Shown here piece by piece: positions 5,926 through 31,600 of a DNA stretch of 32,000 nucleotides. Each line of letters opens with the position of its first letter. Position 1 is the stretch's first letter. The translations under genes were made by a program, and so were the position numbers. The notes under the pieces are model-generated. The model saw nothing but the letters and a program-made list of their open reading frames with translations. It was not told the origin of the DNA and did not search any database. Source of the stretch: an uncultured archaeon (GTDB lineage Archaea > Iainarchaeota > Iainarchaeia > Iainarchaeales > Iainarchaeaceae); NCBI GenBank assembly GCA_964577555.1, contig CAZNZM010000010.1, positions 6,796-38,795 of the forward strand, in the 5' to 3' direction.

Positions 5926-7518
5926 TTATAAATCAAACGGCACTATGCCTTGTTTGACGTATTTCTCTACAATTTCTTGGGTACAATCAGTGTCAGTATT
6001 GTACCAAGAATTAGGATCAAGTTTATATGTGCAAACTCTTGGATCGCATTTTTTGTCATCGTTAATGCAGGTGAGTGCTACTTTGACATTTTGTTGGCAT
6101 TCTTTGACGAATAACGAATGTTGAATTGATAAGCAATACTTGTCATCTTTCATTGCCACTGCATAGCGGTTATAGCATTGTTCAGTGCCACTATATTTCA
6201 ATGATCTCATTTCTTTTCTTTGAACTTTGTCGCAAACTTCTGGGACTTTTGCGTCAAGCGCGATTTTTGCATAACAATCCACGTATGCTGAATCTCTTTG
6301 GATTTTTTCGCATTTTCTTGAATCTTTGGTATCAAATGCAATATCGCTAATGCATTTTTCAAACAGTGATTGGTTTGTCCTGCTTATGCCGATGCACAAA
6401 TCTTCGTTCTTGATTTTTTTGGATGTTTCGAATATGCATTTATCTTTAAGATCTGTGTTTCCATCTATTTTTAAGCATCTTTCAATTGAATTGAAATCGG
6501 AAGCATATGCGTAATAACATTCGTTTCTTATTTTTAATTCATTTATTAATGGACAAGTTGATTCGCCATACAAGTTGGTTGCAATATATTTTATACACGA
6601 ATTTTTTAATTCATATTTCAAGTTATAACACGCTTTTACGTCTCCTCTTTTGGAAGCATACCATGCGCTGCAATAATCAAATGCATTTTCGTCTTTTACT
6701 ATGCTGCAAGAAAAATTTGTGTCTGGAACATTTGATGCGTTTTTGAAGCACTCTGCACTCAAAGCTTTGTCAACAAAGTGGTTACATTTTTCCCCATTAT
6801 TTGCCATGTTTATTTGTTTTAGGCAATCGTCTCTTGCATTTACTCCGACTATTTTATAAGTATCGCTGACTTTAAGGCAAATATCTGGGTCGTTTGTACT
6901 TGCCGCAATTCCTTTATAACATTGGTCTCTGGTTTTAGGCTCAAAAATATTTTTACAAGTATCAAATGTGCCTATTCCGTTGTAGCAATCATCTTTTTTG
7001 GCTACATCTTCTATATATTTACAAATTTTGTTGTTTTTAAGTGACTTTCCCACTGAATTATAACAATCGTCTTTGAGATATGTGTCTATGATTTTTATGC
7101 AGACGTTGTAATCAGCCATTGCAACTCCTGCCTCAAAAAAGCATCTTGACTTGAATTCTTCCGACACCAAAGTGCATGGAAATTCGGATTTGTTGGAAGT
7201 TGCGGTGTTAATAAGGCAAATTTCAGCATCAAGAGGCGGGCCAGCATTGCATTTTTCTATGCTACGAACAACTTCTACAGGCACGCCAGGGTATTTATCC
7301 AAATTTATGTCGATTATTTGCTGTTTTGCATCTTTGTTTTCGTCTTCTTTGGGTTTATTAAAATCTATTTGCTTGTTAGTGTCAATATTTTTATTTTGGT
7401 CAATTTCTTTATTTTTATCCAAATTTGGCGGGTTGTCATGTTGTTTGGTTTTTAAACAGCCAAATAATACAATAGATACGCAAAGTATTGCACAAAAAAT
7501 CAATATTTTTTTCTTCAT
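5926..7518 (-). CDS. secreted/lipid-anchored cysteine-rich tandem-repeat protein (hypothetical)
   Basis: 530-aa ORF. N-terminal signal peptide MKKKILIFCAILCVSIVLFGC with a lipobox-like LFGC, then an N/K/D/Q linker with NK-x-ID repeats. The body carries about 34 Cys (hand count) in recurring [KR]-D-x-C-[YFL] ... C-x-x-I units. TATA-like ATATTTAAATATA on the minus strand about 30-40 nt upstream of the ATG. Confidence 0.75.
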   Translation of the reverse strand: MKKKILIFCAILCVSIVLFGCLKTKQHDNPPNLDKNKEIDQNKNIDTNKQIDFNKPKEDENKDAKQQIIDINLDKYPGVPVEVVRSIEKCNAGPPLDAEICLINTATSNKSEFPCTLVSEEFKSRCFFEAGVAMADYNVCIKIIDTYLKDDCYNSVGKSLKNNKICKYIEDVAKKDDCYNGIGTFDTCKNIFEPKTRDQCYKGIAASTNDPDICLKVSDTYKIVGVNARDDCLKQINMANNGEKCNHFVDKALSAECFKNASNVPDTNFSCSIVKDENAFDYCSAWYASKRGDVKACYNLKYELKNSCIKYIATNLYGESTCPLINELKIRNECYYAYASDFNSIERCLKIDGNTDLKDKCIFETSKKIKNEDLCIGISRTNQSLFEKCISDIAFDTKDSRKCEKIQRDSAYVDCYAKIALDAKVPEVCDKVQRKEMRSLKYSGTEQCYNRYAVAMKDDKYCLSIQHSLFVKECQQNVKVALTCINDDKKCDPRVCTYKLDPNSWYNTDTDCTQEIVEKYVKQGIVPFDL

Positions 7519-7574
7519 AACACTTTTACAAATAAGATTTGTTTTATATTTAAATATTCTTGTATTGGCTGATT

Positions 7575-7882
7575 TGTAGAACTTTTTTTTAGTTTATAAA
7601 TAATCTCCTTTTTAATAATTATTTTTTTTAAGCCTTGTTTTTTTTTGTTTTAGTTGTTTTTTTGCGAGCCGTTTTTTGTCATTTTTTTGAATTCTTTTTT
7701 TTAATTATTTTTTTTGCAAGTCATTTTTTTTCAGTTGTTTTTTTTGTGAGCCGATTTTTTTAAACAATTTTTGTTTGATGTTTTATTTTTTTTGCGAACC
7801 AATTTTTTTGTTGATTGGGTTTTTTTATTTTTAAAATGTATAAATTATTTTTTGTGATTTTGTTTTTTTAGACGTTGTTTTT
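7575..7882 (+). repeat. oligo(T)-punctuated mosaic repeat island A
   Basis: Runs of T6-T10 separated by short words (gcgagcc, gtcat, gaattc, aatta, gcaagtca, cagttg, gtgagcc, gcgaacc). 7665-7749 matches 12633-12722 word for word. Lies between the PAN stop codon and the promoter of the Cys-rich gene. Confidence 0.8.
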
Positions 7883-9061
7883 TTATGCAAACATTCTTTG
7901 CTCCGGTTTTTCTTCCTGCTTTTTTGAAAGTTTTTTTATCGCCTCATCAAACTCTTTCATACTAACAGAATTTTTATTTTTCCGCAAAGCGAACATTCCT
8001 GCTTCCGTGCATATTGCTTTAATGTCTGCCCCAGTATGTCCTTCTGTTATTTCAGCTAGTTTTCTTAAATCAACGTTTTTTTCAATGTTCATTTTTTTTG
8101 TGTATATTTCAAATATTTTTATCCTTGCTTCAAATTGGGGTGGCGATATTTCAATAATTCTGTCAAAACGCCCCGGCCTGAGCAATGCTGGGTCAATCAT
8201 GTCTATTCTGTTTGTTGCGCCTATGATTTTTACTCCTTTGATTTTTTCAAATCCGTCCATTTCAGCCAATAATTGCATTAATGTTCTCTGCACTTCCCTG
8301 TCCCCGTTTGCTGTCATGTATCTGTGCGATGCAACAGAATCAATTTCATCAATAAAGATTATTGACGGCTTTTTTTCTTTTGCAAGGCTGAATAGATCCC
8401 TGACAAGCCTTGAACCTTCTCCTATGTATTTTCTTACCAAATCTGAACCTGAAAGCGAAATGAATACTGAATTGGTTTTGTTGGCGACTGCCTTTGCAAG
8501 CATGGTTTTTCCAGTGCCAGGAATTCCATACAACAATACTCCGTTTGGTGGTTCTATGCCAAGTTTCTCAAATTTTTCCGGTTTTGTCAATGGAAGTATA
8601 ACAGCTTCTTCCAATTCCTGTATCTCCTTTTCAAGTCCGCCAATTTGTTCAAATGTAGTATCAGGTTTTTCAATTATTTCCATTGCATTTACCCGCCAAT
8701 CCCTGCTTTCAGGAAAAACTTGGGTTATACTCAATGTTCTTTGATTCATAGCCACTCTTTTGCCGGGTTCAAGCAAAGGCGCAAGTTCTGAGAGTGCTTT
8801 GACTAAAAAATCCATTCCATTGCTGTTTCTGACAATTACGTATCCGTTTTGCAATACTTCAACTATTGTCCCGACAATAAGTGGCGGGGATTTCAGTTCG
8901 TTCAATTCCCTTCTTGCCCTTTCAAGATCCAATTGCAATTGTGATATTCTTGCATTTGTAACTTGTCGTTCAATGTGTAAATTTCTTAATTCTTCTTCCA
9001 AACTAAAAGCGTAATCGTATTGTTTTATTTCTGGTCTTTTTGTTTCATTTGTGTTAGCCAT
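7883..9061 (-). CDS. pan: proteasome-activating nucleotidase (PAN, Rpt-like AAA+ ATPase)
   Basis: 392 aa. N-terminal coiled coil (LRNLHIERQ...LERARRELNELK), OB segment PPLIVGTIVEVL, Walker A GIPGTGKTMLAKAVA, Walker B IIFIDEIDS, second region of homology GATNRIDMIDPALLRPGRFDR. Confidence 0.93.
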   Translation of the reverse strand: MANTNETKRPEIKQYDYAFSLEEELRNLHIERQVTNARISQLQLDLERARRELNELKSPPLIVGTIVEVLQNGYVIVRNSNGMDFLVKALSELAPLLEPGKRVAMNQRTLSITQVFPESRDWRVNAMEIIEKPDTTFEQIGGLEKEIQELEEAVILPLTKPEKFEKLGIEPPNGVLLYGIPGTGKTMLAKAVANKTNSVFISLSGSDLVRKYIGEGSRLVRDLFSLAKEKKPSIIFIDEIDSVASHRYMTANGDREVQRTLMQLLAEMDGFEKIKGVKIIGATNRIDMIDPALLRPGRFDRIIEISPPQFEARIKIFEIYTKKMNIEKNVDLRKLAEITEGHTGADIKAICTEAGMFALRKNKNSVSMKEFDEAIKKLSKKQEEKPEQRMFA

Positions 9062-9104: not shown

Positions 9105-10613
9105 ATGAATTTAATATTAATAACTAACGGTTTGCATTGGTTTTTAAATGAAACTCTAACCAGTCTTTTAAGCAATAAATGTTTGGCGCGTGATGTTTTA
9201 ATGACGGATTTTTTCGCTTTGCTTTTTGTTTTTCTAATAATTTCTGTGGTTGTTACTTTTGCAATAAAGAAGTTAACTTTGCAAGAAACTTACTATGTAG
9301 CTTCTCTGATTAGAACAACCAAGCCAATAAAGTTTTTTTCAAGAATGGCTAGACATACAAGGTTTTTGGATTTTATTTCAACTGCAGGCCTGATACTTGG
9401 CTTTGGAACTTTTGCGATAGATTATCTTTATGGGTCAAAGCTGAGAGGTTGGAAAAGGTATTTTCTCAATTTGGCTGGCTTTTTAGTGCTTTCAGGGTTG
9501 ATGTTTTTAATAGATTTTTTTGGCGGAAATATTTTTTCAAAAAATGCCATGATGGGAAATGCATATCCTTTATTCATAGCTTCGTTTGGTTTGCTTGGTT
9601 TTGCAGGATTCACCCTTTTTGCACTTTTAATGCAAGCAATTGACATAATAATAAAATATTTTGCAGGTTCAAGAGCGTGTCCGGGTGTTGCTCCTTTGAT
9701 TCCCGGAGTTGAAGTTCCAAACGTGCCAATCACGCCGCCGCTTCATGCCTGGATTTCTTTGATAATAATATTAATAGTGCATGAAGCAATGCATGGCATT
9801 GTAGGAAGCAGACATGGTTTCAGAATAAAATCCACTGGTGTAATACTTTTTGGCTTTCTTCCGATAGGTGCTTTTGTAGAACCTGATGAAAAGGAGCTTG
9901 AAAAAGCCGAGCCAAAAAAATTGTTGCCTTTCTTGGCTGCAGGACCTGCTGCCAATCTAACACTGATGGTTATTGTCGGTTTTTTGGTCTTAGGGCTTGT
10001 TTTAATTTCAAATCCGCTTACTGATTATTTGTATCCTGGCGTGGCAGAAAAGCTTTCCAACGGGGTAAAAGTCGTAAAAGTCAATGATTCCGTGAATTTT
10101 TGTGGTTCGACATATCCTGCGACAGCAAAAGGTTTTTTGTTTGAAGGGGACATCATAAAAAAAATTGATGATGTTGAAATAAAGAGCATTCATTCAATGT
10201 TGTCCGCATTGCAAAAAAACAAGTTTGAAGAAAAAAAATTTGAAGTTGACAGAAATGGTGTTGTTGAAACTTTCAAAATAACTCCAAATTCTTTAGGACA
10301 ATTTGGATTCATGGCAGAGGCAATAAAACCAAAAGACGCTCAATTGCCAGCTGGTTTTTCAACCTATGTTTTTTTGTTTTCGTTTATAGTGGAATTTCTT
10401 TATTGGTTGTTCATTTTGAATTTGCTTGTAGCTGCAATAAACTTTTTGCCAATGAATCCTTTTGACGGAGGCAGAATAGCAGGCGTGATATTTTCACACT
10501 ATGCCACTTTTTTAAGCAAGGATGAAAATGAAAGAAAAAAGAAAGTGCAAAAATATTTGGTTTATATAATATTCTCAATTCTTTTGATTAACGCGTTGCC
10601 ATTGTTTTTCTGA
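9105..10613 (+). CDS. site-2 protease family (M50) membrane metalloprotease with PDZ domain
   Basis: HEAMHG (HExxH) within a hydrophobic helix, PDZ-like GVKVVKVND...GDIIKKIDDVEI, and a second metal/substrate motif NFLPMNPFDGGR. A TATA-like tttaaatta at about 9095-9103 overlaps the first ATG, so the in-frame ATG at 9201 (MTDFFALLF) may be the real start. Confidence 0.85.
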   Translation: MNLILITNGLHWFLNETLTSLLSNKCLARDVLMTDFFALLFVFLIISVVVTFAIKKLTLQETYYVASLIRTTKPIKFFSRMARHTRFLDFISTAGLILGFGTFAIDYLYGSKLRGWKRYFLNLAGFLVLSGLMFLIDFFGGNIFSKNAMMGNAYPLFIASFGLLGFAGFTLFALLMQAIDIIIKYFAGSRACPGVAPLIPGVEVPNVPITPPLHAWISLIIILIVHEAMHGIVGSRHGFRIKSTGVILFGFLPIGAFVEPDEKELEKAEPKKLLPFLAAGPAANLTLMVIVGFLVLGLVLISNPLTDYLYPGVAEKLSNGVKVVKVNDSVNFCGSTYPATAKGFLFEGDIIKKIDDVEIKSIHSMLSALQKNKFEEKKFEVDRNGVVETFKITPNSLGQFGFMAEAIKPKDAQLPAGFSTYVFLFSFIVEFLYWLFILNLLVAAINFLPMNPFDGGRIAGVIFSHYATFLSKDENERKKKVQKYLVYIIFSILLINALPLFF

Positions 10614-10775: not shown

Positions 10776-11837
10776 TTACAAGTAATCCAAGTCAACGTCT
10801 CTTTTTGATGCTTTTGATTTAGCGTCTTTGCTACTCTTTATGTATGGACTGTGTACTCCTGTAAAGATGCAAATTACTTCAATTTTGTTTTCAAATGTTG
10901 AATCAACTCTTGCACCCCAAATTACTGTTGCTCTTGGATCTATTCTTTCAGTAAGCAATTCCCCTATTTGGTTTGCTTCTCCAAGCGTCAACTCGGCTCC
11001 GCCAGTAATGTGTATTAAAGCACCTGTTGCACCGCCAATGTCAACGTCAAGCAAAGTGTTATTGAGTGCATCGTCCACAACTTCATTTACCCTGTCCACG
11101 CCTTTGCTTTCACCAACAGCTATAACTGAAAGACCTTTATTGCTCATGATTGATCTTACATCAGCGTAGTCAAGGTTTATGAGTGATGGTTGTGTTATTG
11201 TTTCGGTGATTCCTCTTACTGTTCTTGCGATTACTTCGTCTGCTACTTTGAATGCGTCTTGTATTGGCAGGTTTGGTACTAATTGGACAAGTCTGTTGTT
11301 GTCAATTACAATGACCGTGTCAGTGACTTGCTTTAGCGCTTCAAGTCCTTCTTCAGCTTTGATCATTCTTGCCCTTTCGAGAGCAAATGGATAAGTGACC
11401 ATTGCAATAACAATTGCTCCTTGCTCTTTTGCAATTTGAGCCACAATAGGAGCAGCGCCAGTTCCTGTTCCGCCACCCATTCCTGAAGAAATAAAAAGCA
11501 TGTCAACTCCTTCAAGGACTTCTTCCAATGCAGCCCTGCTTACTTCAGCAGCCTTTGCACCTATCTCAGGATATCCGCCAGCGCCAAGGCCTCTTGTAAC
11601 AGATTTTCCTATCAGTATTTTGGTTATCTCGTCGTTTATGATTGCCAAGTGTTGTTTATCAGTGTTAATGGCTACAAGTTGCGCTCCTGAAATTCCCATG
11701 CTTGCCAGCCTGTTAACTGCATTACACCCGGCTCCGCCTGCACCAATGACCATTATTTTTGGTGTGCCAAATTCCTCCAATTTATCTTCTTTTTTTTCCG
11801 ACGCCGTTGAAATGGCGCTCTCTACAACTGATTTCAT
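10776..11837 (-). CDS. ftsZ: cell division GTPase FtsZ
   Basis: 353 aa with GAGGAGCNAVNRL and the tubulin signature SSGMGGGTGTGAAPIVA. GGAGGAGAGGTGA ribosome binding site upstream of the ATG. Confidence 0.96.
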   Translation of the reverse strand: MKSVVESAISTASEKKEDKLEEFGTPKIMVIGAGGAGCNAVNRLASMGISGAQLVAINTDKQHLAIINDEITKILIGKSVTRGLGAGGYPEIGAKAAEVSRAALEEVLEGVDMLFISSGMGGGTGTGAAPIVAQIAKEQGAIVIAMVTYPFALERARMIKAEEGLEALKQVTDTVIVIDNNRLVQLVPNLPIQDAFKVADEVIARTVRGITETITQPSLINLDYADVRSIMSNKGLSVIAVGESKGVDRVNEVVDDALNNTLLDVDIGGATGALIHITGGAELTLGEANQIGELLTERIDPRATVIWGARVDSTFENKIEVICIFTGVHSPYIKSSKDAKSKASKRDVDLDYL

Positions 11838-12250: not shown

Positions 12251-12266
12251 TTTAAATTTAGTATTT

Positions 12267-12545
12267 GTGGGCTAGTTCGGAGAGGTAGCGGCTCTCTGTT
12301 GCCGGCAACCCGCTTCAGCCGGGAACGAAGCCACTGAAGAGGCATTAACCATATATTGATGCCTTGCCAGTACTGTGAACTTCTGCTCTTAAAGACTGGC
12401 TGTTTGGGCCAACCCCGCTAGGCCTGGAAGGGAGCAACGGTAACTCATTCAGTCGGTGCTTTAAGGTAAACGGAAGCGAGGAGAGGTTAAGGGTAAACGT
12501 CTTTATGTGGTTGCTGTCCATTTGGTGGCGCGCCCACACTCTTGC
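12267..12545 (+). ncRNA. signal recognition particle RNA (archaeal 7S/SRP RNA)
   Basis: Contains the universally conserved helix-8 core aaccccgctaGGCCTGGAAGGGAGCAACGGtaac (12411-12444), close to the M. jannaschii and E. coli SRP RNA cores as I recall them. 5' gtgggc (12267-12272) can pair with 3' gcccac (12532-12537) as helix 1. The region is GC-rich in an AT-rich genome. Exact ends are uncertain by about 10 nt. Confidence 0.85.
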
Positions 12546-12589
12546 AAAAATTATAAAAAAAATACATTTCATTTATACATTTCATTTTT

Positions 12590-13261
12590 TTTTACTTGGT
12601 TTTTTTTGTAAGTTTTTTTTGTCTTGTTTTTTCGAGCCGTTTTTTGTCATTTTTTTGAATTCTTTTTTTTTTAATTATTTTTTTTTGCAAGTCATTTTTT
12701 TTTCAGTTGTTTTTTTTTGTGAATTTTTTTTTATTTTGTTTTAATTGTTTTGTTTTTGTTTTGGCTGGTTGTTTTTTTTTGTTTCTTTTTTTTGAGTTGT
12801 TTTTTTTAGATGTTTTTTTTTCGAGCCGTTTTTTGTCATTTTTTTGAATTCTTTTTTTTGCGAGCCAATTTTTTTTGTTTTGTTAGTCAAGTTTTGTTTT
12901 TTTTACGAGTCTTTTTTTGATAATTTTTTTTATTTTTTGATACTTGTTTTTTTTGGTGAGCCACTTTTTTGCCATTTTTCTTTTTTTTGAATTCTTTTTT
13001 TTGCGAGCCAATTTTTTTTGTGAATTTGTTTTTTTTTATTTTGTTTTAATTATTTTTTTGTTTTTTTGAGGTTTGTTTTTTTGTCGGCTATTTTTTTTAT
13101 TTTTTTTGCTTATTTTCAAGTCAATTTATTTTTTTTAATTGTTTTTTTTGGCAAGCCATTTTTCGTTTTTTTGCTTGGCCAAGTTTTTTTGTCTTGTTTT
13201 TGCGAGACAATTTTTTTTGTCATTTTTTTTGAATTTTATTTATTTTTTTATGATTTGAATT
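12590..13261 (+). repeat. oligo(T)-punctuated mosaic repeat island B
   Basis: About 670 bp of T6-T10 runs separated by recurring words. Internal duplications: cgagccgttttttgtcatttttttgaattc at 12633 and 12822; gaattcttttttttgcgagccaattttttttg at 12846 and 12989; gtgaattt...attttgttttaatt at 12719 and 13021. The track lists no minus-strand ORF of 60 aa or more inside it. Confidence 0.8.
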
Positions 13262-13723
13262 TTATTTTTTTCTTCGGTATTGTTTTTTTATTTTTCCAGA
13301 CAATTTGCGTGATTTATTTTGCTTTTTTATGACATTTTTTTCTTTTCTTTTTTTGCTTGTTTTTTTGCCTTTATTTTTTTCACTCTTTCCAACAACCCTG
13401 TTTTTCGGTTTTTTCCACGCTTCAAGCGCAGCATCAATTTTTTTTCTTTGTTCGTTTCTTCTTTTTTCTCTTTCATCAAGCTTTGCGATCAACGAATTAT
13501 ATTTTCTGTGAACTTCTTCGCTGTGTTTTAATGCATTTTTTAAAGAAAGCTCCAAATGCCTTTCTTCCCTCTCTTTATGCAAACCATGAAAAACCCTGTG
13601 TAAAAAACCCAAAGCAACAGAATTATCCGCTTTTGTCTTTCTATATTTGGCTCTTTCTGAATGATGTTTGCTTAAACTTAAATATTTCCTAAATTTAATA
13701 TAATGCTTTTCGTGTTTTTCCAT
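13262..13723 (-). CDS. hypothetical basic coiled-coil protein with Lys-rich C-terminal tail
   Basis: 153-aa ORF, His/Lys/Arg/Glu rich (HKEREERHLELSLKNALKHSEEVHRKYNSLIAKLDEREKRRNEQRKK). The C-terminal 45 aa are mostly K. It lies 29 nt downstream of the 336-aa gene on the same strand. No family recognised. Confidence 0.55.
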   Translation of the reverse strand: MEKHEKHYIKFRKYLSLSKHHSERAKYRKTKADNSVALGFLHRVFHGLHKEREERHLELSLKNALKHSEEVHRKYNSLIAKLDEREKRRNEQRKKIDAALEAWKKPKNRVVGKSEKNKGKKTSKKRKEKNVIKKQNKSRKLSGKIKKQYRRKK

Positions 13724-13752: not shown

Positions 13753-14763
13753 TTAATTCTTTTCAACTTTGTTTTTAAGGCTTTTTTGCACAGCTTCAAT
13801 TATAAATTTTATGATGGCGGCATAAACCCCTGCAATATTTGCGGCAATAACATTAAAGTAAATTGCAAGAGTGGTTGCCACGCCAAAAGCAACCAGAACA
13901 GAATAAAAATTAGTTATAAGCTCTATTTCTTTTGACGATTTTTTAATAGTGTCATAATTTATTTTTTGTCTGATTTCATTATTGCTTTTACTCAATTCTT
14001 CCGCAATTTTTTTCTTTGTTTCAGGATTGTCAATTGAAGAGGCAGTGGCATCAATCATTGCAACGAAAGCCTTTACATCAGGATCATTTTTTTGTCTTAG
14101 ATTATTGAACTGTTCTGTATTCATTATTCCAACCATCAACATTCTCTGTATGTTTAACGCTTGATCAGCTCCCGCTAAAGCCAAGTCTTTTGAGCCAAGC
14201 ATGTTCGAAGCTGTTTTTTCAACAAGCCCGTCAAATAATTCTTTTGTATATTTTTCATTGTTAGGAAAACCAATCAATGTTAATATTAGAAAAATCCCTA
14301 TTGTAAATACTAAAAATCCTTTTTTTGCTGATTCGGTTCCAGTTCTAAAACCAATTAAGTTTTTTATTTCGGATTTTCTAAAATAACTATAACCACCAGT
14401 AATTGCAATTGCGGGGATGATCAGAAAGGACAAAAAAACGGATTTTAATTCAATTCCAAACAATAATAAGTAAACCAGCCAACCAATAAATGCCCCTAAA
14501 CAGGCGCCTACAAGCACGTCTATTTTGTCTTGGCTGTGGCTTAATCCTGAAACAAGTCCAAACGTGATTGGCATGAAGAAAGTAAATGCAATTATCCAAG
14601 GAGATAAAACTGTTTCAGGCAGTTTTTCCAAAGACTTGAAGCTCAACCAGTCTATTTCCATTACCCCTGAAAAACTCAAAAAAATAGACCATATTATAAT
14701 TGAAAATGAAATTGCTCCAGTAAAGATTAATATTTTTTTAATATCAGCCATGATTTCACTCAA
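13753..14763 (-). CDS. hypothetical polytopic membrane protein
   Basis: 336-aa ORF with about five N-terminal TM helices, a ~110-aa polar helical insert (LGSKDLALAGADQALNIQRML...KKIAEELSKSNNEIRQKI) and a C-terminal TM. TATA-like aaatttaaataaaa on the minus strand about 40 nt upstream. Confidence 0.65.
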   Translation of the reverse strand: MSEIMADIKKILIFTGAISFSIIIWSIFLSFSGVMEIDWLSFKSLEKLPETVLSPWIIAFTFFMPITFGLVSGLSHSQDKIDVLVGACLGAFIGWLVYLLLFGIELKSVFLSFLIIPAIAITGGYSYFRKSEIKNLIGFRTGTESAKKGFLVFTIGIFLILTLIGFPNNEKYTKELFDGLVEKTASNMLGSKDLALAGADQALNIQRMLMVGIMNTEQFNNLRQKNDPDVKAFVAMIDATASSIDNPETKKKIAEELSKSNNEIRQKINYDTIKKSSKEIELITNFYSVLVAFGVATTLAIYFNVIAANIAGVYAAIIKFIIEAVQKSLKNKVEKN

Positions 14764-14882: not shown

Positions 14883-14955
14883 GCCGAGGTAGCTCAGCAG
14901 GTGGAGCGTCCGGCTGTTAACCGGAAGGTCGGTGGTTCAAATCCACCCTTCGGCG
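14883..14955 (+). tRNA. tRNA-Asn (anticodon GTT)
   Basis: GCCGAGG-TA-GCTC-AGCAGGTG-GAGC-G-TCCGG-CTGTTAA-CCGGA-AGGTC-GGTGG-TTCAAAT-CCACC-CTTCGGC-G. Complete cloverleaf, followed directly by cttttttatttg. Confidence 0.93.
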
Positions 14956-15711
14956 CTTTTTTATTTGTTTCTGAATCCAATTTTTTTGTCTTTTGGCTTG
15001 GTTATTCTTGGAGCCTGTTTATTTTATTTTTTTTTTGATTTTTTTGTTTTTTTTGTTTTTTTTGTCAAGTTGTTTTTTTTTATTTTTTTTATTTTGGTTT
15101 TGTTTTTTTTGTGAGCCATTTTTTTTGTGGTTTTTTTTGGTTTTTTTTGTGGGATGATTTTTTTTGTCATTATTTTTTTTTGTTTTTTTTGTGAGCCAAT
15201 TTTGTTTTTTTTTGTTTTTTTTGTCAAGTTGTTTTTTTTTAGACTTTTTTTTTATTTTTTTTTAATTATTTTTTTTAAATTGATTTTGTTTTTTTTTGTT
15301 TTATTTTATCATTTTTTTTGAATTATTTTTTTTCTTGGTTTTTTTGTTTTTTTTGGTATTGCTAGCCATTTTTTTGTCATTATTTTTTGTGAGCCATTTT
15401 TTGTTATTTTTTTTGTGATTTTATTTTTTTTATTTAAATTGTTTTGTCTTTTTTTGTGGCTTGTTTTTTTGATTTTTGTTTTTTTTGGCGAGCCGTTTTT
15501 TTTGTGGGGCAATTTTTTTTGTTATTTTTTTTGTGGACTTGTTTTATTTTTTTGTTTTTGTTGGCTTGTTTTTTTGGAGAATTTTTTTGGCAAGCCGTTT
15601 CGGACTTATTTTTTTTGCTTTGTTTTTTGCTTGTATTTTTTTCAGCATTTTTTTGAATTTGTTTGTTTTTCATTTTTTTGTTTGGCCTTTTTTTATGGTT
15701 ATTTTTTAATT
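14956..15711 (+). repeat. oligo(T)-punctuated mosaic repeat island C
   Basis: About 755 bp of the same architecture. Recurring words include gtgagcca (15111, 15191, 15389), gtcaagttg (15064, 15224), gtcattatttt (15166, 15376), ggcgagccg (15487) and gcaagccg (15590). Bounded by the tRNA-Asn 3' end and the stop codon of the 276-aa gene. Confidence 0.8.
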
Positions 15712-16542
15712 TTATAAGGTGTCAGAATGCAGTTTTTGTTCTTTGGCTGGCTGCTTATCTGCTTGATGACTTTTGTGTTCTTTTATTTTTTTAAGAGTCT
15801 CATAATATGCGCCTATAACGTCTTTGAGTTCCATTCTTCTTTTCAAGCCCAGCCTATGAACTTCTTGAAAATACACTGTTACGAGTCTTATTGCAACTTC
15901 TTCATCGCTTAGGTTCATCCAGTTTTCCTCCATCATTTTTTTACTAATCATACTTTCTAATTTGTTTTTTTCATTATTTTCTGCTTCGTTTGTTTGTTCA
16001 GTTTTTTTTGTTTCAGGTTCACTAATAATTTCTTCCGTGTCTTTTTCTTCTATTTTGATTGGGATTTTTTTTATTATTGTTCTGGTTTTTACTACTGGGA
16101 CTTTTTTTACGATTGTTTTCGTTTTTATAACTGGGACTTTTTTTATTATTGTTCTCACGATTGTTTTTGGTTTAGCTTTCACTTTTTTTATGATTGGCTT
16201 GCCTTTTTTGTATGAAGTCCACAATCTTACTGCTTGTTTGAATGTTTTGCCAGCAATTAATTGCCTTTTCATGAATAAGTTGTACTCTGAAAGTTGCTTC
16301 TTTGATTTTTTCTTTGAAAGCTTTTCCAGATTTTCTTTTAATTTTTCCATTTCTTTTTTAAGAGAAGCCGTTTTTGCAGTAACAGACTTGACTTTTTTTT
16401 CAGCCTTCTTTTTGACAGCAAAAATTGATTTTTTAAGAGCTTTTGCCTTTTTGCTTTCAGATTTAAGGGTTTTTTTAAGTTTTTTTAATTCTTTTCTGAC
16501 TTTTTTTCCAGGGTTTTTTGATTTAGAAACCATTGTTTTCAC
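15712..16542 (-). CDS. hypothetical Lys-rich protein with internal 12-aa tandem repeats
   Basis: 276-aa ORF. Lys-rich coiled-coil N-terminus, a segment LSEYNLFMKRQLIAGKTFKQAVRLWTSYKK, four I[IV]KK[VI]P[VI]xKTxT units, an acidic linker, and a C-terminal helical domain (VAIRLVTVYFQEVHRLGLKRRMELKDVIGAYYETLKK). Minus-strand TATA-like catttaaatac about 40 nt upstream. Confidence 0.65.
   Translation of the reverse strand: MKTMVSKSKNPGKKVRKELKKLKKTLKSESKKAKALKKSIFAVKKKAEKKVKSVTAKTASLKKEMEKLKENLEKLSKKKSKKQLSEYNLFMKRQLIAGKTFKQAVRLWTSYKKGKPIIKKVKAKPKTIVRTIIKKVPVIKTKTIVKKVPVVKTRTIIKKIPIKIEEKDTEEIISEPETKKTEQTNEAENNEKNKLESMISKKMMEENWMNLSDEEVAIRLVTVYFQEVHRLGLKRRMELKDVIGAYYETLKKIKEHKSHQADKQPAKEQKLHSDTL
16051..16197 (-). 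repeat. 36-bp in-frame tandem repeat (about 4 units) inside the 276-aa CDS
   Basis: On the + strand, tttttttattattgttctggtttttactactgggac / tttttttacgattgttttcgtttttataactgggac / tttttttattattgttctcacgattg.... These encode IIKKVPVIKTKT / IVKKVPVVKTRT / IIKKIPIKIEEK. Confidence 0.75.
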
Positions 16543-29291: not shown

Positions 29292-29443
29292 GCGAGGGTG
29301 GCAGAGTGGTCTAATGCGGCGGCCTGCTAACAATTTTCCTTCTCAAAATCAAATTTCATTTGTTGTATTATTTTTTTTGGAAAGGAAAAAGGCTGCGAGC
29401 CGTTACTCGAAAGGGTGCACGGGTTCGAATCCCGTCCCTCGCG
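29292..29443 (+). tRNA. tRNA-Ser (anticodon GCT) with a 68-nt intron at 37/38 (intron about 29330-29397)
   Basis: Exon 1: GCGAGGG-TG-GCA-GAGTGGTCTAA-TGC-G-GCGGC-CTGCTA. Exon 2: A-GCCGT, variable arm ACTC-GAAA-GGGT, T arm ACGGG-TTCGAAT-CCCGT, acceptor CCCTCGC, discriminator G. T-run follows. The intron boundary is ambiguous by 1 nt (A on both sides). Confidence 0.88.
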
Positions 29444-31432: not shown

Positions 31433-31600
31433 GCAGGAGTAGCGAAGCGGTCAAACGCGCCAGACTCAAGTCACATTTTTTCTTTCGTTGCACAAAAGAA
31501 AAAGACGAACCAAAAAATAAAACAACAAAAAAGCAATCATTCAGTGTGTGGGCAATCTGGTGGCTTAGTGCCTTCGGAGGTTCGAATCCTCCCTCCTGCA
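31433..31600 (+). tRNA. tRNA-Leu (anticodon CAA) with an 84-nt intron at 37/38 (intron about 31471-31554)
   Basis: Exon 1: GCAGGAG-TA-GCG-AAGCGGTCAAA-CGC-G-CCAGA-CTCAAG. Exon 2: A-TCTGG, long variable arm (TGGCTTAGTGCCTTC), T arm GGAGG-TTCGAAT-CCTCC, acceptor CTCCTGC, discriminator A. Followed by attttt. Confidence 0.88.

Follow-up and report, generated by a model that had tools for sequence, protein, structure and literature searches.

Two gene spacers of one genome contain nearly the same string of short words separated by T runs, which raises the question of whether the strings are related by descent or merely alike in composition, and of whether the shared string has a function of its own. 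The spacers lie in a stretch of 32,000 nt, referred to here as the window (C10:6796-38795), from a genome of 979 kb in 15 contigs (G000; 34% GC, 95.5% complete). The presence of an Archaea_SRP RNA and of intron-bearing tRNAs (Rfam, tRNA scans) indicates that the genome is archaeal. The shared string, or module, is part of longer oligo-T arrays, three of which (A, B and C) are found among the following features.

5926..7518, minus strand: gene for a 530-aa Cys-rich surface protein, with no Pfam match, its start just left of array A
7520..7882, plus strand: array A, oligo-T, from the start of the 530-aa gene to the PAN stop (T-run cluster C10:14378-14732)
7665..7749, plus strand: copy A of the module, 85 nt, with runs T6, T7, T8, T8, T8, T8 (regular expression and alignment)
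7883..9061, minus strand: PAN, proteasome-activating AAA ATPase (Pfam AAA and Prot_ATP_ID_OB_C)
9105-10613, plus strand: M50 protease gene (Pfam)
10776-11837, minus strand: FtsZ gene (Pfam)
12265..12539, plus strand, T-sense: archaeal SRP RNA gene (Rfam RF01857, 130.9 bits), directly upstream of array B
12540..13261, plus strand: array B, oligo-T, from the SRP RNA 3' end to the stop of the 153-aa Lys-rich protein gene
12633..12722, plus strand: copy B of the module, 90 nt, with runs T6, T7, T10, T9, T9, T9 and words identical to those of copy A
12822..12851, plus strand: partial third copy, the first 30 nt of the module (CGAGCCG T6 GTCA T7 GAATTC)
13262..13723, minus strand: gene for a 153-aa Lys-rich protein, with no Pfam match, its stop adjoining array B
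13753-14763, minus strand: gene with no Pfam match
14883..14956, plus strand, T-sense: tRNA-Asn(GTT), directly upstream of array C
14957..15711, plus strand: array C, another member of this oligo-T family, starting immediately 3' of tRNA-Asn and reaching the stop of a Lys-rich gene
15712-16542, minus strand: gene for a Lys-rich protein of 273-276 aa with an internal 12-aa repeat region, its stop adjoining array C

A TTTAAATATA box sits between array A and the ATG of the 530-aa protein gene (5926-7518, minus strand). The PAN stop adjoins array A, and PAN has no run of T5 or longer downstream in its own sense. The SRP RNA and tRNAs were the only stable RNAs matched by Rfam here; intron-containing tRNA genes for Ser and Ala at window positions 29292-29443 and 31433-31600 (ARAGORN, intron option) were found by Rfam and missed by the default tRNA scan. 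Genes neighbouring arrays end in Lys-rich tails, and the Lys-rich 5' coding part of the gene at 15712-16542 (window 16354-16519) was itself detected as a T-run cluster. The Lys-rich gene ends beside arrays raised the idea that arrays may be seeded from A-rich gene ends.

The module and its copies

The sequence-only reading had described copies A and B as identical in words and word order and different only in T-run length, with the first third of the module recurring at 12822-12851, and regular-expression searches and MAFFT alignment reproduced this description exactly. Copy A consists of CGAGCCG T6 GTCA T7 GAATTC T8 AATTA T8 GCAAGTCA T8 CAGTTG T8 GTGA (regular-expression check). Copy B lies 4,968 nt away in direct orientation, and the exact pairwise alignment contained 0 substitutions in 40 non-T letters, the seven words following each other in identical order. 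Four of the six T runs differed in length (+2, +1, +1 and +1), which gives the net gain of 5 nt previously reported. The homology ended abruptly at both ends of the module. The identity of the third copy extended through the following T8 to position 12859.

Chance resemblance between T-rich sequences, the objection that the same reading had raised against itself, was excluded. In a BLAST search within the genome, copies A and B matched with 88% identity (gaps counted; E 3e-34), and the next best match had 78%. With T runs collapsed they shared 46 letters, while in 20 trials with the word order randomised over every array in the genome the maximum was 20-28 shared letters and never reached 30 or more; the real genome contained approximately 49-51 exact matches of at least 30 letters. 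A match so far above the shuffle null indicates true homology rather than low-complexity resemblance. The A/B pair ranked about tenth among the exact run-collapsed matches and belongs to a set of 181 homologous module pairs. This, together with its identical words and its position beyond the shuffle null, supports the earlier view of a recent or homogenised copy. The A/B block is an ordinary copy event in a fast-evolving, strand-locked oligo-T repeat family and shows no sign of a specific message or function of its own.

Other identities for the repeated sequence were tried and rejected. Protein coding was examined by permuting T-run lengths in 74 arrays. The longest A-sense open reading frame averaged 71.5 codons against 71.5 under the null, and the T-sense average was 79.2 against 81.8 codons; 5 of the 74 arrays reached P ≤ 0.05, which is about chance. 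The absence of a conserved reading frame, argued before from the A/B run differences of +2, +1, +1 and +1 nt, was thereby upheld for the arrays at large. A structured RNA was rejected because both strands of both copies folded worse than shuffles (z +0.8 to +2.1), and the fold analysis found no inverted arms in the module. Phased A-tract curved DNA was rejected on low spectral power at 10-11 nt, the peak being at 14-16 nt. A discrete mobile element or MITE was rejected because block boundaries differed in every pair and terminal inverted repeats were absent.

Turnover of the oligo-T array family

Runs of T or A of at least 6 formed 184 clusters, which gave 160 arrays after merging. Together they cover 47 kb (58 kb when margins of 30 nt are included), equal to 5-6% of the genome. 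The assembly has at least 12 contig ends that fall within arrays (C1, C2, C4, C6, C7, C10, C12 and C14), indicating that arrays break the assembly and that their share of the genome is an underestimate. It is unusual that 5-6% of a 1-Mb archaeal genome is taken up by oligo-T arrays which point one way and disrupt assembly from short reads.

The arrays lie between genes and are mosaics of a small number of module types that recur at many loci. The most frequent run within them was T8 (1,022 runs, compared with 859 of T7, 343 of T9 and 53 of T10), and runs were spaced at 13-17 nt. The words between runs were 1-10 nt long, mostly began with G, and came from a small vocabulary: GTCA, GAATTC/A, GTTG, GCAAGCCA and a GYGAGCC core. 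Their syntax was loose, running from core to GTCA to GAATTC with no fixed unit length; core-to-core distances ranged broadly from 20 to 200 nt, and TRF gave numerous overlapping periods between 9 and 159 nt. The core occurred in a single orientation relative to the T runs in 169 of 170 cases inside arrays. GAGCC was unpolarised outside arrays (463 vs 473), and a KOPS- or Chi-like genome-wide polar word was rejected on that count.

Blocks were shared across all contigs, as shown by the 181 seeded homologous module pairs. Inter-array pairs on the same contig made up 25.6% of the total against 14.0% expected, so that copying is biased towards nearby arrays, as for A and B. Within the 181 blocks, 592 of the 1,164 paired T runs (51%) differed in length and 328 of the 7,009 non-T sites (4.7%) were substituted, which makes a change of length per run about 10 times more frequent among paralogous copies than a substitution per base of the words. 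Length differences in exact matches were mostly small (78 of ±1, 20 of ±2 and 7 larger). Only 20 of 81 T runs had changed in the nine longest blocks, which are the youngest, indicating that run changes accumulate with age. Mean run length also varied between arrays, from 6.8 to 8.45 (permutation P < 0.0005).

To examine run lengths beyond this assembly, contigs encoding exactly the same neighbouring proteins were compared from JGI 3300043177, 3300043267 and 3300037501 and from Logan SRR12686701. These are consensus assemblies rather than reads, and they provided 56,135 aligned bases, of which 11.2% were in arrays. T-run length differed from the consensus of these four other samples at 0 of 358 array runs and at 0 of 764 A/T runs of at least 6. 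The run lengths of arrays A, B and C were identical in all four assemblies, so the lengths are not assembly noise. The length polymorphism within or between populations that is typical of phase-variable homopolymers was found at none of the 358 array runs, on consensus sequences. Judged from the consensus of four samples without polymorphism, length change is therefore slow on the population time scale. The sequence-only reading had T-run length evolving by slippage; its fast length change is borne out among paralogues (592 of 1,164 runs), with slippage as the putative mechanism, whereas 0 of 358 island runs were polymorphic across the four samples. Together, the rate of run change among paralogues and the fixed population consensus could be used to date array turnover.

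The sole differences across the assemblies were four observations at three sites, all of them in arrays and each a G-to-T change as read on the T-rich strand. The probability that all three variant sites would land in arrays, which are 11% of the aligned sequence, was about 0.001.

7689, plus strand: G/T variant in copy A, T7-G-AATTC becoming T8-AATTC, in samples 3300043177 and 3300043267
12846, plus strand: G-to-T variant in the third copy, homologous to 7689, in sample 3300037501
C1:147389: G-to-T variant in an array, in one sample

Positions 7689 and 12846 are the equivalent module position in two paralogous copies. Their recurrence points to either a hot spot at which a run absorbs its neighbouring base or exchange between copies. 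The Logan contigs break exactly at this position. In one JGI contig (L021; Ga0484935_008317 of 3300043267), sequence from left of copy B is joined to sequence from right of copy A, the junction being 38 nt over which the module is identical. A second junction in this contig, at 46 nt common to the two FtsZ paralogues (window 11168-11213 and G000:C2:84162-84340), leads to the other FtsZ gene, on C2. Recombination between A and B in vivo was rejected as an explanation of this contig, since two such junctions in one contig mark it as an assembly chimera rather than a product of recombination in the cell. It is a documented example of arrays causing chimeric contigs in public metagenome assemblies. 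A metagenome search with a gapped module pattern returned at least 120 loci, and the 120 listed were all chance matches with non-T gaps.

In related genomes the pattern of three T7 runs was much less frequent. It occurred 944 times in G000, 93 and 43 times in two genomes of the same genus and 51 times in a single genome from another family; none of the other 27 genomes searched had more than 17. In one congener (G002) the skew was equally extreme, and the arrays were again co-oriented and shared blocks among themselves, but their words were different (GGTCGTG, GTTGTTGTGC). The spacer after PAN contained no array in G001, G002, G003 or G005. A one-strand oligo-T scaffold recurs in G001 and G002, while words and sites turn over. 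The sequence-only reading had taken the words and their order, rather than a protein, as the preserved feature. They are identical in A and B, but this over-reads the identity, which is better taken as recency because G001 and G002, of the same genus, build similar arrays from other words. Literature searches found no account of such arrays in DPANN archaea.

Strand polarity, placement and rival explanations

Arrays were co-oriented over whole contigs in 158 of 160 cases. Gene strands were mixed on the contigs of uniform array polarity, which are 50-150 kb long.

C2: T on the plus strand in each of 35 arrays
C3: T in each of 25 arrays
C4: A in each of 37 arrays
C1: A as far as 147,957 and T from 150,274 onwards
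C1:128,978-129,105 and C12:11,296-11,501: the two counter-polar arrays, short, genuine and composed of the usual words

Base skew was measured at third codon positions and averaged over plus- and minus-strand genes, which removes coding effects. On C2, C3, C4 and C1:150-171 kb the absolute GC3 skew was about 0.4-0.6 and the TA3 skew about 0.34-0.7, and the T-run strand was the G+T-rich strand. On C1:1-149 kb and C5-C8 the third-position skew was approximately 0, and the TA skew of non-array spacers was 0.08. Arrays on these low-skew contigs were still co-oriented 38:1, including 15 arrays in convergent spacers. Co-orientation in the absence of neutral skew indicates that base composition alone does not set array orientation, and that mutation bias alone does not explain polarity. 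Third-position skew was intermediate on C9-C11 (0.1-0.3), with gradients along C2, C3, C9 and C11. Two such skew regimes are not predicted by a simple two-replichore model.

The only polarity switch (L046) was at C1:147,957-150,274, where arrays change from A to T and skew changes from approximately 0 to +0.7 within 2.3 kb. This interval contains a gene for an XerA-like tyrosine recombinase, a 420-nt spacer and a PRC-domain gene. The switch lies in unique sequence and was spanned with identical sequence by three other assemblies. No switch was found at either Orc1/Cdc6 gene (C1:61 kb and C4:16 kb), and an origin at the polarity switch was rejected because neither gene is located there. Twelve of 14 contigs had their T runs on the plus strand, and G002 (42:1) and G021 (4:47) were also lopsided, which is odd if contig orientation is arbitrary.

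The placement of arrays depended on the orientation of the flanking genes. When the T strand was read from left to right, the right-hand gene was on the A strand for 73% of arrays, so that the array followed its stop, and a T-sense gene lay upstream of only 45%. The proportion of spacers occupied by an array was as follows.

Convergent: 34% in high-skew and 22% in low-skew contigs
A-sense co-directional: 24% in high-skew and 8% in low-skew contigs
Divergent: 19% in high-skew and 7% in low-skew contigs
T-sense co-directional: 9% in high-skew and 5% in low-skew contigs

The difference between T-sense and A-sense co-directional spacers was significant (Fisher P = 0.002 for high-skew contigs alone, 0.012 with both classes pooled). 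It is the distribution expected of elements that terminate T-sense transcripts and are hence excluded from T-sense operons. This bias was not reproduced in 77 kb of G002, a small sample. Of the A-sense genes followed by an array (n = 89, including those with stops at window positions 7883, 13262 and 15712), only 10-14% had a T5 or longer run downstream in their own sense, compared with 67-74% of T-sense genes without arrays and, in high-skew contigs, 25% of A-sense genes without arrays. With approximately 90 A-strand genes that have an array downstream and no recognisable terminator, the way in which transcription ends becomes a testable question for genomes of extreme strand bias. On low-skew contigs 64% of the genes were A-sense. 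Four of the 22 T-sense tRNAs and four of the 25 in A sense had an array after them, showing no preference, and the idea of terminators dedicated to stable-RNA genes was not supported by these 47 tRNAs.

The genome encodes aCPSF1 (TIGR03675 match at C1:78217-80097, 843 bits against a cut-off of 580). In Methanococcus maripaludis the minimal aCPSF1 site is two U4 tracts within 18 nt, and more tracts terminate more strongly (PMC8716108). A T-sense transcript of the arrays, with T6-T10 runs at 13-17 nt, would contain at least two U4 tracts within 18 nt.

The explanation that best fits these data, with a probability of roughly 0.6, is that the module arose by recent duplication or conversion within a genome-wide, lineage-specific, non-coding, modular oligo-T satellite that is terminator-like in its T sense. 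Arrays would grow and reshuffle by copying blocks from one to another, preferentially between neighbours. After copying, T-run lengths would drift by ±1-2 nt, presumably through slippage, and a T run would take in the bases next to it (G to T); change of either kind is probably much faster than substitution in the words. Duplication and gene conversion would account for the copies equally well, and slippage may have occurred during copying or after it. In the T sense every array presents a dense stack of U7-U9 tracts, the termination signal of archaeal RNA polymerase and aCPSF1/FttA, and the A sense is without that signal; selection would then tolerate arrays where T-sense read-through is not needed. 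T-sense termination is, on sequence grounds, the most likely effect of the arrays. Arrays that start directly after the T-sense SRP RNA and tRNA-Asn genes count for this, while counting against it are the low share of arrays with a T-sense gene upstream (45%), the 73% of arrays that follow an A-sense stop, the scarcity of own-sense T5 or longer runs after those A-sense genes (10-14%), the tRNAs without preference, the absence of the bias in G002, and array lengths of 300-900 bp that far exceed what termination needs.

It is possible, though we consider it unlikely, that the arrays are pure filler, neutral junk produced by extreme strand-specific mutation bias, slippage and unequal exchange, and one-way simply because the strand is T-rich. 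The skew on C2, C3, C4 and C1:150-171 kb, where the T-run strand is always G+T-rich, would be expected in that case, and so would the same skew with arrays in G002, words that are not conserved in the genus and the lack of an array downstream of PAN in relatives. This account does not explain the 38:1 co-orientation in low-skew regions with its 15 convergent-spacer arrays, nor a distribution of run lengths that peaks at T8 without decay and does not change between regions of high and low skew, nor the dependence of spacer occupancy on gene orientation. Uniform polarity over 50-150-kb contigs of mixed gene strands, held without base skew, would also suit an element linked to replication, which marks or serves fork direction, with T runs as primase start sites on the lagging-strand template or as stops for head-on transcription; the module would then be a copy of one of its units. 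The single clean switch beside the XerA-like gene, confirmed in three other assemblies, points the same way, and, with 64% of genes A-sense in low-skew contigs, T-sense transcription would meet the fork head-on if most genes are transcribed along with it. We regard this as improbable, since polarity does not switch at either Orc1/Cdc6 gene and since skew differs so sharply across the only switch (approximately 0 vs 0.7), unlike the simple two-replichore picture. A related proposal, tentative and in our view rather unlikely, is that the arrays are chromosome-scale polar elements, oriented by a factor other than base composition, most simply by fork direction, which might act as one-way transcription gates or as a 3'-end device (for example through stable rA:dT hybrids) serving the A-strand half of the genes, whose U-tract terminators would have been lost. 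If that were true, the shared module would belong to a working system kept uniform by active homogenisation.

Stiff poly(dA:dT) tracts that exclude histones from gene spacers could be imagined in a genome that has an archaeal histone gene, and T-run spacing of 13-17 nt, out of helical phase, would give straight, stiff DNA. Rigidity is independent of strand and cannot explain the strict polarity or the polar GYGAGCC core, which makes a role as packaging spacer very improbable. We give hardly any credence to an origin as A-strand genes for Lys-rich proteins obscured by frameshifts or homopolymer errors, as a mobile element or as an assembly error. Some arrays do contain Lys-rich open reading frames of up to 160 codons, and neighbouring genes end in Lys-rich tails; however, permutation did not alter reading-frame lengths (P ≤ 0.05 in 5 of 74 arrays), T-run lengths were reproduced in four other assemblies, and the boundaries of shared blocks differed from pair to pair, with terminal inverted repeats absent.

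Comparison with known systems

REP/BIME and BOX-type elements are mosaic intergenic repeats of bacteria. The arrays, probably a satellite of the kind proposed above, resemble them in being intergenic, in having a small module vocabulary in varying order, and in having blocks common to several loci. They differ in strict polarity, in a homopolymer scaffold, in an archaeal host and in the lack of palindromic hairpin units, the module folding worse than shuffles on both strands.

In reduced AT-rich genomes of endosymbionts, poly(A) tracts are hot spots of homopolymer indels. Homopolymer and simple-sequence indel hot spots were described in Blochmannia vafer, in which relocation of the origin was linked to shifted strand-specific pressures (PMC3268670). 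The small AT-rich genome and a change of repeat length that outpaces substitution are features in common, whereas the arrays are long and non-coding, share words, are capped at approximately T9-T10 and show no length polymorphism in four samples.

Archaeal U-tract terminators, as studied in M. maripaludis, are recognised by RNA polymerase and aCPSF1/FttA (PMC8716108, PMC7515710). T-sense arrays are similar in giving many tracts of U4 or longer within 18 nt, in a genome that has aCPSF1. Known terminators consist of one to three short tracts after a gene, while the arrays extend over 300-900 bp with 20-50 runs of T7-T9, mostly follow genes of the opposite sense, and form a repeat family with shared modules.

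Compared with minisatellites or satellites that evolve by unequal exchange and conversion, the arrays have no fixed unit length, are dispersed over approximately 160 gene spacers and are co-oriented across the chromosome. They are like them in local duplication, in exchange between arrays, in having no coding capacity or RNA structure, and in fast turnover between species.
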